DNA of 64,000 nt from Gemmatimonadota bacterium (GCA_040389905.1 JAZJZK010000030.1:1-64000); one strand, 5' to 3'. Counted from the first letter of the stretch, positions 41,964 to 49,471 are shown. Translations and numbers: made by a program. The notes: generated by a model not told the origin, from the sequence alone.

Positions 41964-41997
41964 AGAGCGGCAGAGCCCGCGAAGGCTCTGCCGCTCT
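41964..41997. terminator. Intrinsic terminator hairpin, probably bidirectional
   Basis: Perfect 14-bp stem AGAGCGGCAGAGCC / GGCTCTGCCGCTCT just after dut; T-rich tail on the minus strand. Confidence 0.85.
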
Positions 41998-41999
41998 CT

Positions 42000-42138
42000 A
42001 TCGTCAACGTGGTCCCAGCCCTGTTACCTGGTGCTCACGAAAACGAAACCGGACCGCAAGACCGCCGATCCGCGTAAACCGTTGAAAGTTAACGGGTTAC
42101 GGTGATCTTGCTGGTCCGAGGCTGACTAGACAATTGAT
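42000..42138 (-). ncRNA. Displaced 3' half of a putative structured small RNA (integration target)
   Basis: Nested inverted repeats CGGACC/GGTCCG, GCAAGA/TCTTGC and CGTAAACCGTT/AACGGGTTACG; ends at the terminator; homologous to 48285-48350. Confidence 0.5.
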
Positions 42139-42364: not shown

Positions 42365-43561
42365 ATGCCAAGAAAGAAGACACGTCACCACCGACCGAAG
42401 AACGGGGCAACGTTTTATGTAAACCGTCGATTTCCGCAATACGGCGTTCCACGGCTGTGCCGGTCAAGCGGCACAAACGACGAAAAGGTGTTTGACGACA
42501 TCCAACGCCTGCTCGACCAACTCGGACAATTGGGAAGTCCGGAGGCAGCAAAGATCATCCAAGGGATTCACAAGAAGCGACTTACCTTCGTCGATGCCCT
42601 TGGCGCGCACCAAGGTGAAGGCCGTCAGGGCATTATCAGGCTCGCTGAAGATGATGCTCCCATTGACGAGCGGTCCTTCCAAGCTTGGCTGGCAGTGCAC
42701 GACGTAACCCAAAGCACTCGAACTTCATACAGGAACGCCTTCAAAGCGCTGGAAAAATTCGTGAAATCCGGCGACACGATGAAATCGCTTCCCGCCGTGC
42801 TCGGGCGGTATCGGGATGACTGTGTGAAGCTCGGGAGGAACCGTAGGGCCTTCGACATCGCGCTCGCTGTCGCGCAGGCATGGGTCAAAAAAACAATCGG
42901 CCCGGCCTCAATGCCCTACCGCGACGTGCGGCTCGTCCAGCGGTTCAACGACAAGCCCGATGCCCGAAAGAGCAAGTACTTCAGCCCCCGTGACATCATG
43001 AATATTGCGCAGAGGCTCCCGGCACCGCTGGATGACGTCCTCTTCGCGACCGCATCTTATGGAACCAATCCGAAAGAGTATTTCAGCGACGGGTTCACGG
43101 TGACACCGGATGGCGTTGAAATTCATGGAGAGAAATCCAAGCACCGGAAGCGCATAGTTCCGCTCCTTCGAAATTTTCCGCCCGTAATACCGCCAGCATG
43201 GATCAATTATCGAAGATGGTGGCGGTATGTGACAATGGCATCAAATGGAGAGATGCTTCCTGACGATGCAAGGAAGTCATTTGCGCGCTGGATGTCAGAG
43301 GCGGGTATCCCCTTCAACCGCGCCGAACAATATCAAGGTCACGCTGAAACCACGCAGACGGCGACGTATTTCTATCACGTTGCGACGGCGGGACAATTGA
43401 GAACAGATGGGCTGCTCCTCAACGATTGGATCAAAAAGAACCTTGAGCAGGAGCCCCCGAATCCAGCTGGGCGAGTCATAGCAATTCGCCCGCGCGACGC
43501 AAAATACGAAAAGGGGATGCTGGTCCGGCCGCCGAAGCGAGCGTTGTGGCGGGAGGAATAG
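42365..43561 (+). CDS. Tyrosine recombinase/integrase, divergent catalytic motifs
   Basis: STRTSYRNAF core-binding helix; YGTNPKEY (box I), GEKSKHRKRIVPL, PDDARKSFARW (box II), QGHA, TATY; adjacent to the att repeat. Confidence 0.8.
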   Translation: MPRKKTRHHRPKNGATFYVNRRFPQYGVPRLCRSSGTNDEKVFDDIQRLLDQLGQLGSPEAAKIIQGIHKKRLTFVDALGAHQGEGRQGIIRLAEDDAPIDERSFQAWLAVHDVTQSTRTSYRNAFKALEKFVKSGDTMKSLPAVLGRYRDDCVKLGRNRRAFDIALAVAQAWVKKTIGPASMPYRDVRLVQRFNDKPDARKSKYFSPRDIMNIAQRLPAPLDDVLFATASYGTNPKEYFSDGFTVTPDGVEIHGEKSKHRKRIVPLLRNFPPVIPPAWINYRRWWRYVTMASNGEMLPDDARKSFARWMSEAGIPFNRAEQYQGHAETTQTATYFYHVATAGQLRTDGLLLNDWIKKNLEQEPPNPAGRVIAIRPRDAKYEKGMLVRPPKRALWREE

Positions 43562-43621: not shown

Positions 43622-44098
43622 GTGCCGGAATTAAGTGTTTATCGCGGCGCAGTGTACTGGATGATTTCTGATTATGGATATCAAACCTTGAACGAACCGG
43701 GCGACGCGGATAATGATATTCGCTTTCAATGCACCGCTAAGTCAGGGCGCTCCTATCGATCCCAATTTCTGCTATATCCAATCCAGCGCATTGCTAGAGT
43801 TGTCATTCATTTTGACCTGAGATATCACCCGAACCGAAGACTGTTCTTTGCGGAGGTAGTGCACCGTCTCAATGATTCCGTCGCTGTGCTCGGACATTTT
43901 GAATTTCACTGGGATTCCGGTCAGACGAGTTTCGTCTTTGGTGCCGAGGTGACGGACCCTGATCCCGAAACATTTGCGACGATGATGAATCGCTGTGCTT
44001 ACGCCATTGAGGTATGGGAGGCGGCGTCAGGATTCTTTAGCGGCAGACTCGGTGCGGACGGTGTCGTGTCCGTCGCTCAGATGTTGACAGAAGTCTAA
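43622..44098 (+). CDS. Hypothetical protein, possible YbjN/T3SS-chaperone-like fold
   Basis: 158-aa ORF; EVVHRLND...GHFEFHWDSGQTSF resembles the YbjN pattern. Confidence 0.5.
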   Translation: MPELSVYRGAVYWMISDYGYQTLNEPGDADNDIRFQCTAKSGRSYRSQFLLYPIQRIARVVIHFDLRYHPNRRLFFAEVVHRLNDSVAVLGHFEFHWDSGQTSFVFGAEVTDPDPETFATMMNRCAYAIEVWEAASGFFSGRLGADGVVSVAQMLTEV

Positions 44099-44189: not shown

Positions 44190-44429
44190 TCAGAGTTCCG
44201 GCAGGAAATACGCTATCGGTTTTCGGTACGCCACGGCCAAATCGCAAAGTTCCACAGGGTCAATTCGAATTTCTCCCTGTTCGATCTTCGAAATGCGGCC
44301 TTGTGTAGTTCCGAGCCGTCCCGCGACCTGTACCTGAGTCAACCCAGCAGCCAAGCGGGCTTCACGGAGTTTGCGGAGCATCTCCCGGTATCGCGGATCG
44401 TGAATTGACCGGGGTTTTCGAGCGGGCAC
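44190..44429 (-). CDS. XRE-family HTH transcriptional regulator
   Basis: LREARLAAGLTQVQVAGRLGTTQGRISKIEQGE. Confidence 0.9.
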   Translation of the reverse strand: MPARKPRSIHDPRYREMLRKLREARLAAGLTQVQVAGRLGTTQGRISKIEQGEIRIDPVELCDLAVAYRKPIAYFLPEL

Positions 44430-44543: not shown

Positions 44544-44816
44544 ATGCCACGCACCATCATCGCACTCGCCTTCACGATGGCAGCCTGTGCGAATTCATCT
44601 CGCCGAGAAGTTCAAGTTGACCAAATCACGGCGGCCTGCGAAACGAGGGAGCAGCTCAAGGCGTATCAAGGGTTCCACCGCATCAATGATGGCTGCGACT
44701 TCCTTGGGCTGAGTAGCGGCACAGTCACCGGGAAGCTTGCGGACCAAGGCGACACCTGGGCGAAGGTTGAGATAGGTGGTCGGACTGTCTACGTAAGCCG
44801 AAGCGCAATTCACTAA
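44544..44816 (+). CDS. Small lipoprotein with an SH3-like C-terminus
   Basis: [15 protein letters not shown] lipobox; [17 protein letters not shown]. Confidence 0.6.
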
Positions 44817-45550
44817 CCCACAACCGGCAAGTTCTCATGAAGAAATGCCCATGGTGTGCGGAGGAAATACAAGATGCAGCAATCCTGTGTCGATATTGTG
44901 GGCAAAGTACACTTCCGCAGAATATGCCGCCGAGTCCCGCGACCACGGCAAGTACAACAACGGCTTCCGATCACCAACCTGCCCCGGAGTACCCAGCAGA
45001 TCCAGATAGCGTGAAACGCCGGCTGGGAGAGTTCGGTGGATCAATCGCAGGGGAATGCCGTGCATGCACGTACAAGGGTCAGATCGGAGTGGACACTACG
45101 AACATCGGACCCTTCGCCGGATTGGGCCTTCCTGTGTTTTTCTTTGCGTGGACGTCTCTTGGACTTTTCATGTCGCTATTCCTTGGAGCGTTGACATCCA
45201 TCGTCATGATTCTGGTCAAAGGCACCAAGGTTGTAACGTGCCCTCAGTGTGATCGCGCCAGCACTGTCGCAGTACATGTTTCGCACTATGCTATTCCAAT
45301 AGACGCGTTAGCCCGTACGCCAAGTGCCAGATCATAGCTGGTCAGGGGCATTGTTGAACCAACCGATTGCCGGGAACCTTGCGGACCAAGGCGACACTTG
45401 GGCGAAGGTTGAAATAGGTGGACGGACCGTGTACGTAAGCCGAAGCGCAATTCACTAACCCACGACCGGCAAGTTCTCATGAAGAAATGCCCGTGGTGTG
45501 CGGAGGAAATACAAGATGCAGCAATCCTGTGTCGATATTGTGGGCAAAGT
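44728..45550 (+). repeat. 181-bp direct duplication (44728-44908 and 45370-45550)
   Basis: Ungapped near-identical copies 642 bp apart, covering the lipoprotein 3' end, the spacer and the first 24 codons of the zinc-ribbon genes. Confidence 0.92.
44837..45337 (+). CDS. Zinc-ribbon (UPF0547-like) membrane protein, copy A
   Basis: [23 protein letters not shown]-terminal CRAC-hydrophobic hairpin-CPQC. Confidence 0.8.
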
Positions 45551-45895
45551 TCCCGACCGCAAGACATGCCATCCACGCATCCCTCGGTAGCGGCAGGGAT
45601 GGCCACGGGCATACGCGATGCCACAGGCAAACTGAATTGGAACAAAGTAGCAGAGCAAATGACACGGTGTATCCATTGCCAGTCAATGGACACTGGGGTC
45701 AAGTACACCCTCTGGCATTGGCTCGTCGGAATCGGCTGGTTCCCGATCGGAACCGTATTCGCCATGTTGTTTCCAGCACGGCGCTGCAATGAATGCGGGA
45801 AGTGTTTCGGTCCAGCATACGAAGGAATGAAGACAGTGGTCACCCTTTCGCTGATTTGCCTATCCTTGCTCGCCATCTTCATATTCGTCATTTGA
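45479..45895 (+). CDS. Zinc-ribbon (UPF0547-like) membrane protein, copy B
   Basis: Identical N-terminus; different C-terminus CIHC-hydrophobic-CNEC plus a terminal TM. Confidence 0.8.
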
Positions 45896-46086: not shown

Positions 46087-46305
46087 ATGCAGGATCAATT
46101 ACTTACGACAGCAGAAGTGTGCGAAATATTCCGTTGCAGCGAGCGTAGTGTTAACAGGATGGTGGCGGATGGAATTCTGAACCCTCTGCGTTTGCGGGGG
46201 CTGGTTCGTTTTCGGCAGTCGGAACTCGATGAATTGATTGAGGCGCTTGACTTGAACCCGGATGAATGTCAGTGCGATGGCCAGTGTGAATGCGTGAAAG
46301 AGTAG
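46087..46305 (+). CDS. Excisionase-like MerR/AlpA-type HTH protein
   Basis: LLTTAEVCEIFRCSERSVNRMVADGILNPLRLRGLVRFRQSELDELI; GGAG SD. Confidence 0.85.
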   Translation: MQDQLLTTAEVCEIFRCSERSVNRMVADGILNPLRLRGLVRFRQSELDELIEALDLNPDECQCDGQCECVKE

Positions 46306-46387
46306 TGCAGGTCACAGGCCCTTGATCCAACTAAAAACGTTCAACCGCTGTCTGCCACGTCGGTCTCTCATGCAGGTACAAAAGTGA

Positions 46388-46427
46388 AAAGCTCCCCATC
46401 CGGCTTTGCTGCCGGGGGGAGCCTTTT
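46388..46427. terminator. Possible bidirectional terminator between xis and the polymerase gene
   Basis: AAAAGCTCCCC...GGGGAGCCTTTT hairpin with A/T tails. Confidence 0.55.
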
Positions 46428-46503
46428 GTATCACAAATAGCTTACCTGAACACTATAAAGGGTAACGGAAGAAGTTATGATATTGTTGGGCGCCCTTTCC
46501 ACT

Positions 46504-47928
46504 TCATAGCTGTTCCCCCTTCAACCTCAATCCAATATCAAAGGCAAATGCCTGAATGGATGATTTACTGAGTGAGTGTTCAAGAAACGCTATATCAAAC
46601 GGTTCTTTCGAGATCCATCCGTCATGCATTGGTACAAGAATATCTGAACGGTTGGCACAGCATATGTTCAACGCCCAAGCTTCGTATCCCAGCATGATGA
46701 AGGACAAGAGTCTCTTGCGGGGGTAATTCTTGCCGTCTGATTTCCGCAGGGGGTGAATCTTTCCGGCAGCGTTCCTGACATGGGTGAATCTCCTTCCCGT
46801 TCGAACCCTGTGGGCATTTATGAGTGTTTTCCTTGCTGACCGAATTTCGAGTTGAATCATGTGATAATACGGGTCGGCTAGGATGCGCTCGGCTCCCAAT
46901 TGTCCGGCAATGTCTACAAGCGTGGAGTATTTTCGATGTGAGGAACGACGGACTCCAAAGAAGGCTGCCAAGATTACTATTTTCACCTTGTCCTTCGAAA
47001 TCATCCATCTCCCGGAAAGCTCCTGCTGTCTTTCGGACAAGTGTGTGAGATAGTCACGAATGACGCACACGGGCCTGCCATAGTGTTTCCCAAGGCTGAA
47101 GAACAGTGATGGATGACATGCGTTGAAGTCATAGTTCCACCAGCCAGTATCTTTATACAGTTTCGCTCGTGCGCCCCGCTCCATGCGTTGAAGGGAACAT
47201 TCCCCGAGTCCCATGAGCCGCCCGGGGCCAGTGTGCGGCTCGCTCTCGGGTTTGAAGTCATGGTATAGGTTCGGGACGCCCCCCGCGACGCGAATCCATT
47301 GGCGGACCTTGTACAGCGAACGCAGCCCTTCCACGGACTGGTTCGACGCTCGCGATGCCTTCGCTGCGATTTCTGCCTCAAAATCAGCAATCAGCGTGTC
47401 CACCCGCTGCGTGTCAAACGGAATCACGGATGGAACACTGAATTGAAAAAATGATGTCCGGAGAATGCCATCAGCGGGGAAGTGCTGTGCGCCCGATTCC
47501 CACGCAATGCTAGCGGTCTTGTCCCGCCAACAATCTGTAAGGAGTATCTCGACAGGGCGGCACAGAAAATATGCTTTTGTATATCGCCCCTCCTCGTACC
47601 CGTCGTCCCCATCCGGGAAATGCCACAGATTCCGGAGATACTTCTTGTAGTCTGACTCGCTGCCCCCAAGATGTTTCCTCAACCTGCGTTCGATGAAGCT
47701 CGACCCACGGGCGATTTGCGGTCCAATATGGTGTGCTGCCAAAGCGGATGGGATTGGGTGCGTGTGCGGGCGGGAGAGGAAGTACGACATGTTCAGATAC
47801 TTCACGAGATGTCGCACTTTCCGATCTATTTCCCGCTGTCGCTTCATCTGGGCGCGTACGTGGGCCTCCACGAAAGCGTCAAGCTCGGGGAGTCGCAGTC
47901 GTGGTGCTGCTTCGAGAACAGTGGACAT
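46504..47928 (-). CDS. Stand-alone family-A/T7-like (TV-Pol-like) nucleotidyl polymerase
   Basis: GRL...SLQRM...R pre-motif, motif A YDFNACHP, motif B KDKVKIVILAAFFG, LLSFIMLGYEA, motif C VPMHDGWI; no exonuclease or helicase domain seen. Confidence 0.75.
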   Translation of the reverse strand: MSTVLEAAPRLRLPELDAFVEAHVRAQMKRQREIDRKVRHLVKYLNMSYFLSRPHTHPIPSALAAHHIGPQIARGSSFIERRLRKHLGGSESDYKKYLRNLWHFPDGDDGYEEGRYTKAYFLCRPVEILLTDCWRDKTASIAWESGAQHFPADGILRTSFFQFSVPSVIPFDTQRVDTLIADFEAEIAAKASRASNQSVEGLRSLYKVRQWIRVAGGVPNLYHDFKPESEPHTGPGRLMGLGECSLQRMERGARAKLYKDTGWWNYDFNACHPSLFFSLGKHYGRPVCVIRDYLTHLSERQQELSGRWMISKDKVKIVILAAFFGVRRSSHRKYSTLVDIAGQLGAERILADPYYHMIQLEIRSARKTLINAHRVRTGRRFTHVRNAAGKIHPLRKSDGKNYPRKRLLSFIMLGYEAWALNICCANRSDILVPMHDGWISKEPFDIAFLEHSLSKSSIQAFAFDIGLRLKGEQL

Positions 47929-47958
47929 AAAAAAACCTCATACGGTTAGGGTATGAGG
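47929..47958 (-). terminator. Terminator/attenuator hairpin directly before the polymerase start codon
   Basis: Minus strand reads CCTCATAC-CCTAACC-GTATGAGG-TTTTTTT-ATG; the GAGG SD lies inside the stem. Confidence 0.7.
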
Positions 47959-48250
47959 AGCCGTCGTACTGAATGTGCTTCGCTGATAGGGGTTACTCCC
48001 GATCGTTCCAGCCGCTCGCTACGTCGCCTCCAACATGGTTACCATTGCACAAAGCATCATTCGGGCAAAATCGTCAAGGGGTCTTCAATCCCGCCAATTC
48101 AAAACATGATTTTGAGCTTGAAGGGACGGATGCACCCCGACGAGCGGGAACTATCAATACTAGAAACGACGAGAGCGACAGCAGGCCCGATGCCAACTGT
48201 CGCTCTCTGTCATTGTGACGGTTTCCGGCCCTGTGCACAGGAATCCGTAC

Positions 48251-48400
48251 ATCAATGTTTCGGACTAGCTCAAGGCCAATCCTACGTAAGCCGTTGAAAG
48301 TTATAAGCTTACGGTGACCCTGAAAAGCCGAAAATGACTAGACAATTGATCACCTCCTTCGTTTCGGGGTTGTACTTGAGGGCGAACGGAATCTCATACT
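48251..48400 (-). ncRNA. Putative chimeric structured RNA at the right att (host 5' half plus element-supplied 3' half) containing AAGGAGGTGATC
   Basis: Perfect 12-nt SD at 48348-48359, followed by nested stems ATCAA/TTGAT, TTTCGG/CCGAAA, TCAGGGTCA/TGGCCTTGA, CGTAAGC/GCTTACG. The 5' end is not determined. Confidence 0.5.
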
Positions 48401-49231: not shown

Positions 49232-49239
49232 GTCCCTTC

Positions 49240-49451
49240 AACAGACGTACGAGGTACCCTGAACCTGGTACCCGGATTGGCATCCAACCCAGAGGAGCCA
49301 TCGACACGTTCGATGGCATCCTACGCTCCGCAGGGGCCAGCTTGGGCCGCGTGTGAGGCAAGACGTTCGTAGTGCGACACAGCCATCTATGGCTCCTCTC
49401 GGCAAGCGGGCCAGTCCGGATACCAACGTCCTGGTACCTCGTACGTCAGTT
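49240..49451. repeat. ~212-bp long palindromic repeat / MITE-like element, copy 2
   Basis: AACAGACGTACGAGGTACC...GGTACCTCGTACGTCAGTT; homologous to 38219-38424; sits between convergent genes. Confidence 0.8.
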
Positions 49452-49471
49452 GTATGGTTTCGGCGAGGGTT

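Follow-up and report, generated by a model that had tools for sequence, protein, structure and literature searches.

The integrative element and its target

The window, i.e. the whole stretch of 64,000 nucleotides of Gemmatimonadota DNA that was analysed, carries a polymerase gene that sits in a 6,212-bp integrative element with an integrase, an excisionase and 16-bp direct repeats; in a relative, its insertion site is empty (Table 1). The repeats bracket the 6,212 bp measured from core to core, the GC content between them is 52.5% compared to 63–65% in the flanks, and the empty site with one core was found in a genome of the same genus (G009, locus L004). Besides the polymerase, the element encodes a tyrosine recombinase, an Xre regulator, an excisionase and four small cargo ORFs; no helicase, SSB or structural gene was recognized among its ORFs with Pfam and PHROGs. 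An excision joint did not occur in the contigs of the one DNA sequencing run that contains the element, and contigs drop rare forms; no RNA run containing it was listed.

Table 1. Features of the integrative element, its target and the polymerase gene (positions in the window).
Feature	Coordinates	Strand	Basis or remark
Displaced 3' portion of the interrupted host gene, with the end of the short ORF, a long hairpin and a terminator	41964..42138	minus	
Left 16-bp direct repeat (att core)	42123..42138	plus	only 2 copies in the genome
Tyrosine recombinase (integrase), subfamily without the first catalytic Arg	42365..43561	plus	PF00589 E 7.5e-5 (below cut-off); phrog_1 E 7e-7
158-aa ORF	43622..44098	plus	no family match (Pfam, PHROGs, NCBIfam, PADLOC among the searches)
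Xre-type HTH regulator	44190..44429	minus	HTH_31 E 9e-13
Small signal-peptide-like ORF, cargo	44544..44816	plus	weak SH3 match (E 0.02)
Two zinc-ribbon membrane ORFs (44837–45337, 45479–45895), cargo	44837..45895	plus	
HTH_17 excisionase-like gene	46087..46305	plus	HTH_17 E 1e-12; phrog_66
Hairpin between the converging excisionase and polymerase genes	46377..46431	either	z −3.5
Polymerase gene, minimal family-A fold, TV-Pol-like, 474 aa	47928..46504	minus	ORF call, predicted fold, profile match
Motif C, H435-D436-G437; D436 = Pol I D882	46618..46626	minus	profile alignment to Pol I
Motif B, K316...F324-G325	46954..46983	minus	profile alignment to Pol I
Motif A, D267-F-N-A-C-H272; D267 = D705, H272 at the E710 position	47113..47130	minus	by register
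GRL hairpin, R237 = Pol I R668	47215..47223	minus	profile alignment; 121/121
N-terminal domain (about residues 1–140), weakly winged-helix-like; conserved H55, T117-K118-x-Y120	47509..47928	minus	
8-bp hairpin with T7 run abutting the polymerase ATG	47929..47958	minus	3' arm holds the only SD-like GAGG
Diverged, element-borne replacement copy of the target 3' part; restores 14-codon ORF, hairpin, terminator	48173..48334	minus	
Right 16-bp direct repeat (att core)	48335..48350	plus	only 2 copies in the genome

The integrase gene has a promoter with an 11/12 match to sigma-70. Together with four relatives of 27–29% identity (L127–L130), the enzyme forms an odd subfamily that lacks the first catalytic Arg and the His of HxxR and keeps the Lys, the second Arg, Gly-His and the Tyr. 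Decay of this particular integrase was considered and rejected, as all four relatives are also devoid of the first Arg. Within the cargo region, a 201-bp duplication (44728–44928 and 45370–45570, 93% identical) comprises the last part of the SH3-like gene together with the zinc-ribbon start of a membrane ORF; the two membrane ORFs that share this start differ in their C-termini, giving a cassette-like arrangement.

Two hairpins flank the polymerase gene. The one facing both the excisionase and the polymerase gene is a probable two-way terminator. The other is terminator-like and hides the Shine-Dalgarno sequence of the polymerase, which suggests low or regulated expression and a possible expression brake. 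Among five loci folded, a hairpin of this kind was seen in the window and in one further locus (L017), there about 30 nt before the start.

The element is inserted into a conserved small host gene between dut and a Rce1-like gene, matched in 36 of 54 other genomes of the genus. In the target locus of roughly 230 nt, a perfect Shine-Dalgarno sequence is followed by a short ORF with a TTG start, which overlaps with a long hairpin, and there is also a terminator (41964–42138 and 48173–48400 on the minus strand of the window; L086–L110). The ORF is exactly 14 codons long in 20 of the 22 loci, among which are the window and the unpublished G012. Since the element brings along a full, diverged 3' replacement that keeps the 14-codon frame, the RNA or peptide of the target seems to matter to the host, as this arrangement suggests. 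A tRNA as target was rejected, there being no tRNA in the window. 6S RNA was rejected as well: Rfam gave no match for the target at gathering level, and the sub-threshold candidates for 6S RNA were on other contigs in 4 of 5 genomes. No paper on the target gene was found in the open-access literature. The original prediction had named the att hairpin as a possible template of the polymerase. This idea is not borne out: the hairpin belongs to the conserved host gene, which the element disrupts and supplies anew, so that there is nothing to connect it, as a template, with the polymerase. Just outside the element, in the intergenic region after the Rce1-like gene (49234–49457), an inverted repeat of 48 nt (79%) is present, within which another of 17 nt is nested.

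Catalytic residues of the polymerase

The predicted family-A-like polymerase corresponds to an intact ORF of 474 aa. It contains the PolA motifs in the expected order: G236-R237-L238, S245-L-Q247, D267-F-N-A-C-H272, K316...F324-G325 and H435-D436-G437. Searches with the protein in Pfam, PHROGs, NCBIfam and PADLOC provided no useful family name, and neither did the PDB by sequence and by profile nor phage records by sequence; the Pfam PolA model PF00476 did not match. A word search returned five close relatives, and a profile search 2,595 representatives at E≤0.001 (50% clustering).

All residue counts refer to an alignment of 121 full-length relatives (400–560 aa) out of 152 retrieved, which share about 20–35% identity. 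R237 is present in 121/121 sequences and D267, K316 and E416 in 120/121 each, followed by D436 (119/121), N386 (118/121) and G437 (116/121). At such low identity, the near-invariance of R237, D267, K316 and D436 argues for kept catalysis in the family. Judged by the profile matches and the conservation in relatives, the polymerase motifs are not a product of chance.

An hhalign-type profile alignment to Pol I (88.7%, E 2.6e-6) equates R237 with R668, K316 with K758 and D436 with D882 and puts G325 after Y766. Motif A is shifted by a few residues in this alignment, and the register of His272 with Glu710 is absent from it. The assignments of His272 to Glu710 and of D267 to D705 come instead from the five-residue count from the catalytic Asp and from the boundary between strand 264–268 and helix 271–282 in the structural model. 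By this count, the Glu710 position is occupied by His in 98/121 relatives and by Glu in none (0/121), and Cys precedes it at 271 in 97/121. Motif C reads HDG and not HDE, the Gly being shared by 116/121. Both substitutions had been noticed in the original prediction. The loss of the Glu is indeed present, but it is not peculiar to this protein: His and HDG are family-wide and common to MAP_030 of the phage Ma-LMM01, discussed below.

Further positions of Pol I are altered as well. The Arg of motif B (RxxxK, R754 in Pol I), four residues before the Lys, occurs in 3/121 relatives and is Lys in the window protein. The equivalent of F762 is gone in the family, with Leu, Ile, Asn or Thr at this position. 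At the position of Y766, which is Tyr in 68/121 relatives, the window protein has Phe. The T7 RNAP residue at the Y766 position is Y639, and its change to Phe relaxes the choice of sugar. No conserved Asp was found in the fingers at 292 or 298 (28/121 and 17/121, in an uncertain alignment register). The window copy departs from the aligned relatives at three positions, with Leu at K/R297 (basic in 115/121), Phe at H410 (His in 107/121) and Leu at Q/T413 (Q or T in 89/121). It may be weakened by partial decay.

E710 and F762 are the residues of Pol I named as excluding ribonucleotides; CcPol is described as keeping both and as priming with dNTPs (PMC7581432). Both positions are replaced across the family of the window protein, and relaxed or RNA-primer synthesis is for this reason somewhat favoured. 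The loss of Glu710 is nevertheless no proof of RNA synthesis, because His is itself bulky and is described as the steric gate of PolD, an enzyme of unrelated fold (PMC7708050), and because T7 RNAP has Gly (Gly542) and not a bulky residue at the aligned gate position. His272 could be a substitute steric gate.

Predicted fold and N-terminal domain

The AlphaFold2 model of the polymerase has a pLDDT of 93 and a pTM of 0.92. All PDB matches listed by Foldseek are family-A DNA polymerases, the best with an E value of 8.7e-8. A structure search independent of Foldseek (VIA) gave Z 15.5 for Pol nu (rmsd 3.8, 286 residues aligned), Z 14.7 for Klenow (rmsd 4.0, 287 aligned) and Z 10.6 for T7 RNAP (rmsd 4.6, 303 aligned). 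The comparison with Klenow and T7 RNAP accordingly recovered a predicted PolA palm, with family-A DNA polymerases as the best of the listed matches. Given by the extent of the PolA match, the polymerase core covers about residues 157–474. In the model, D267 lies at the end of strand 264–268 and D436 in the turn between strands 430–434 and 437–440; by implication of the fold match, the two catalytic Asp would lie side by side.

Inside the range aligned to PolA, the model has an antiparallel thumb of two helices (173–189 and 196–215), and in a global alignment to Pol I the thumb ends with a gap of 9 residues. A shorter thumb helix is tied to de novo initiation in the account of Rice 2023 (PMC10061031). 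The likeness between the 9-residue gap and the shorter helix of de novo primases is suggestive only.

The N-terminal domain is alpha/beta in the model. Modelled alone, residues 1–150 reached a pLDDT of 85, and their matches are weak and mostly to winged-helix regulators (MarR, ArsR, PadR, TubR), with Z of about 4, Foldseek E>0.2 and Atlas TM<0.5. A DNA-binding role of winged-helix type is plausible for this model. The predicted absence of an exonuclease domain could be corroborated: the PolA match is confined to the core, and what precedes it gives weak helical or winged-helix matches. No exonuclease fold is among the structure matches listed for the N-terminal domain, although absence from such a list is weak alone. 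In the aligned relatives, no column within residues 1–199 exceeds 48% Asp/Glu, and neither the domain scans nor the structure search found a fused or linked nuclease domain.

Relatives and their surroundings

Full-length homologs were found in 3 of 400 genomes of the same family and matches of any kind in six, one of them the unpublished G666. This patchy spread is typical of mobile DNA. The search for loci confirmed 0 of 100 stretches from viral contigs, 1 of 598 from metagenomes and 23 of 78 from genomes, the confirmed genome loci belonging mostly to a more distant betaproteobacterial clade. The neighbour survey covered 182 ORFs (minimum 100 aa) lying up to about 5 kb from the gene at 23 loci, leaving out L065 and L078 (near duplicates), L071 (no called ORF) and L081 (no such neighbour). 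A Tyr or Ser recombinase lies near the gene in 9 of these 23 loci and a plasmid Rep gene in 4, and several contain IS or type I restriction genes. One SF2 helicase and one AAA ATPase are among the 182 ORFs; a D5-type helicase or primase family is not, many of the loci being short.

Two complete Polaromonas plasmids carry the polymerase gene beside their own RepA_C, in agreement with their description (PMC6015842), and for that reason a role of the gene as initiator of these small plasmids was rejected. Altogether, plasmids with the gene also encode an initiator of their own, RepA_C or Rep3, so that the polymerase is not the main one. Directly upstream of the gene, an SSB-like ORF occurs on betaproteobacterial plasmids (phrog_378, E 3e-5 and 6e-3, in two of four ORFs tested; NF046043 below cut-off). 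These upstream ORFs code for about 125 aa (L061:1384–1752, L077:530–904, L023:5669–6049, L022:6828–7205). An SSB-like ORF of this kind and the polymerase possibly represent a PolA-SSB pair outside Bacillota.

On the coding strand after the gene, a CCT-rich pyrimidine tract was found in 12 of 27 loci and in 0 of 136 control ORFs, a comparison that pools related loci and in which the controls are often coding. The tract, rich in CCT or CCTGCCT, lies within the first 150 nt past the stop codon in L061, L062, L066–L068, L074–L077, L081 and L023. It is a candidate priming or origin site in these relatives. The corresponding region of the window scored 20/30 and was counted as lacking the tract.

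The host assembly, which is 85% complete, gave no polA match, compared to 30 of 30 other genomes of the phylum with one; the missing polA is probably an assembly gap.

Proposed function and alternatives

At a probability of about one half, we consider the polymerase to be a primase or primer-polymerase for the replication of the element itself. On the excised circle, the N-terminal domain would bind a site on the element, and the two-aspartate palm would lay down a short primer de novo or extend one briefly. Host helicase, SSB and replicase would finish the copying; these would have to come from the host because the element encodes none.

Several observations speak for such a role: the PolA fold with near-invariant catalytic residues in 121 relatives, the homology to MAP_030, which lies beside two transposase genes as in the 2008 description of TV-Pols, the precedent of CcPol, and the location of relatives on mobile DNA, on betaproteobacterial plasmids with the SSB-like gene upstream. 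The pyrimidine tract after the gene adds a candidate priming site in relatives. On the other side, the open-access literature yielded no activity data for this clade and no paper on its His gate or N-terminal domain. The element is without helicase or SSB, D5-type helicases and primases are missing among the neighbours surveyed, and the window has no pyrimidine tract. Plasmid relatives have their own Rep, the Arg of RxxxK is gone, the window copy shows its three deviations, and the contigs contain no excision joint. Of the earlier reading, which had invoked synthesis of RNA or DNA primers, priming stands as the most likely function that we infer, whereas the loss of Glu710 is no sign of RNA.

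Alternatively, the enzyme could be a DNA polymerase of low fidelity that depends on a primer and does not start de novo; it would fill gaps or mend ends when the mobile element recombines, is transferred or undergoes damage repair. Its core is closest to Pol nu, Pol theta and Klenow, recombinases and transposases are frequent near the relatives, and the element has no SSB partner. Conservative site-specific recombination, in turn, requires no DNA synthesis, and the fused putative DNA-binding domain as well as the tract downstream of the gene in relatives suggest an action directed to a site. CcPol by itself, as described in PMC10061031, only extends primers, a behaviour that would fit gap filling. 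On balance we regard this explanation as unlikely.

The original prediction already contained a small single-subunit RNA polymerase. A further proposal is accordingly a miniature DNA-dependent RNA polymerase of this type or a dedicated RNA primase on a PolA fold, whose winged-helix-like domain would read a promoter of the element and whose Cys-His would replace the gate. The equivalents of E710, F762 and E883 are all replaced, and the invariant E416 falls, by residue count, in the register of D787 of T7 RNAP. In the VIA search, the whole model could be aligned to yeast mitochondrial RNAP over 384 residues (Z 10.6, rmsd 5.4) and to N4 mini-vRNAP over 395 (Z 6.8), and the N-terminal domain alone matches residues 422–669 of mtRNAP at Z 3.8, which is noise level. 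The RNAP Z scores are, however, 4–5 units below those for PolA, and the match of the family profile to T7 RNAP is not significant. The slot of the specificity loop comprises 26 residues in the window protein (family median 22, maximum 39) compared to 54 in T7 RNAP and 31 in Pol I. T7 RNAP moreover has Gly and not a bulky residue at the gate, and the integrase of the element is served by a sigma-70 promoter. A promoter-specific mini RNA polymerase is quite improbable because the specificity loop is missing; with a core closer to family-A DNA polymerases than to RNAPs, this part of the prediction has lost ground.

A loss of catalysis or ongoing decay of the window copy, or a role restricted to DNA binding as initiator or regulator, is also quite doubtful. 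The three deviations at otherwise conserved positions, the missing partner genes and the Shine-Dalgarno sequence hidden in the terminator-like hairpin would agree with it. The full-length ORF is, however, intact and retains all near-invariant catalytic residues (R237, R254, D267, K316, N386, E416 and D436), and R300, one turn from position 297, could compensate for the loss there.

Very unlikely, finally, is an accessory or defence enzyme whose product, a nucleic-acid signal or something toxic, has nothing to do with the replication of the element. Type I restriction-modification genes (L079, L080, L082) or a TIR-domain gene (L068) often share an island with the relatives, and PolA-SSB primases are considered for a role in defence by Rice 2023 (PMC10061031), but there is no PADLOC match and no fixed effector partner across 23 loci, and such islands are generic insertion hot spots (PMC2579912).

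Comparison with known systems

Minimal, nuclease-free domains of the A family were described as TV-Pols by Iyer, Abhiman and Aravind in 2008 (PMC2579912). According to this work, a subset has an N-terminal domain and lies beside integrases, resolvases or IS605 transposases, with phage Ma-LMM01 listed. The Arg of RxxxK was named as highly conserved, a conserved Asp in the fingers was among the TV-Pol traits, the N-terminal TV-PolN was predicted to be all-helical, and the minimal A-family enzymes were proposed to be prim-pols bridging Pol I and T7 RNA polymerase (PMC2579912). The main text of the 2023 PolA reclassification contains no mention of TV-Pol (PMC10201439).

In Ma-LMM01 the family profile finds one ORF, MAP_030 (L125, 22746–24266), which adjoins two transposase genes and is distinct from the PolA of the phage. 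It has a DxxxCH motif A and an HDG motif C, lacks the Arg of motif B and matches the family in hhalign with 97% (E 9e-11). From its gene context, MAP_030 is probably the Ma-LMM01 TV-Pol of the founding paper. The His and HDG features were then very probably already present in a founding TV-Pol. In GenBank MAP_030 is a hypothetical protein, yet it is a clear member of the group in a cultured phage and an accessible protein for assays.

By the fold searches and this match, both the PolA palm and the predicted link to TV-Pols hold. The window protein resembles TV-Pols in its minimal thumb, Arg hairpin, two-Asp palm and fingers, in the lack of a nuclease, in its size within the range of 400–600 aa, and in an extra N-terminal domain on a mobile element with a lambda-type integrase. 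It differs by the absence of the RxxxK Arg, which is likewise gone in MAP_030, by an N-terminal domain that appears alpha/beta and winged-helix-like instead of all-helical, and by the absence of a D5 helicase. We call the protein TV-Pol-like and do not claim strict membership, because the Arg named as defining is absent. Going by the model, the polymerase is a structurally well supported variant of the enzyme type proposed in 2008 and not a new kind.

CcPol, a TV-Pol, is described as priming de novo with an SSB-like partner (PMC7581432, PMC10061031). CcPol-MP and the PolA-SSB primases (SCCmec, Bacillota) likewise combine an exonuclease-poor A-family core with an integrative element, and the proven de novo priming of CcPol-MP is a mechanistic precedent; an SSB-like gene also lies upstream in some plasmid relatives of the window protein. 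In contrast to the window element, the PolA-SSB primases have an adjacent OB-fold SSB partner and a helicase gene, and CcPol contains exonuclease remnants where the window protein has its own N-terminal domain. CcPol, the one assayed TV-Pol that was found, keeps the sugar gate of Pol I, whereas the His-gate clade replaces both excluding residues. With 2,595 representatives this clade is a large one, and no model in Pfam, PHROG, NCBIfam or PADLOC covers the members tested. Its choice between NTPs and dNTPs bears on the 2008 proposal of a prim-pol bridge, and a small self-priming A-family enzyme could be a useful reagent. The window element provides a neat, bounded 6.2-kb test case, although other copies may be better suited for an assay than that of the window. 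A mini RNAP, if true, would stand between DNA Pol I and the T7-type RNAPs as an extant intermediate and represent a family with thousands of unannotated genes on mobile elements.

With E. coli Pol I and Klenow the window protein shares the polymerase fold and the equivalents of R668, D705, K758 and D882. It is devoid of the 3'-5' and 5'-3' exonucleases of Pol I, and E710, R754, F762 and E883 are replaced. With the T7-like, mitochondrial and N4 RNAPs it has in common the superfamily fold, a non-acidic gate and third residue of motif C and an N-terminal non-nuclease domain; compared to these, it is half the size, has no specificity loop, carries His in place of Gly542 and reaches lower structural scores. 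The ColE2-type Rep primases combine a DNA-binding domain with a priming enzyme, act at a site beside their own gene and leave the extension of the primer to host enzymes. Their catalytic domain has the unrelated AEP fold, and their likeness to the window protein is a functional analogy.
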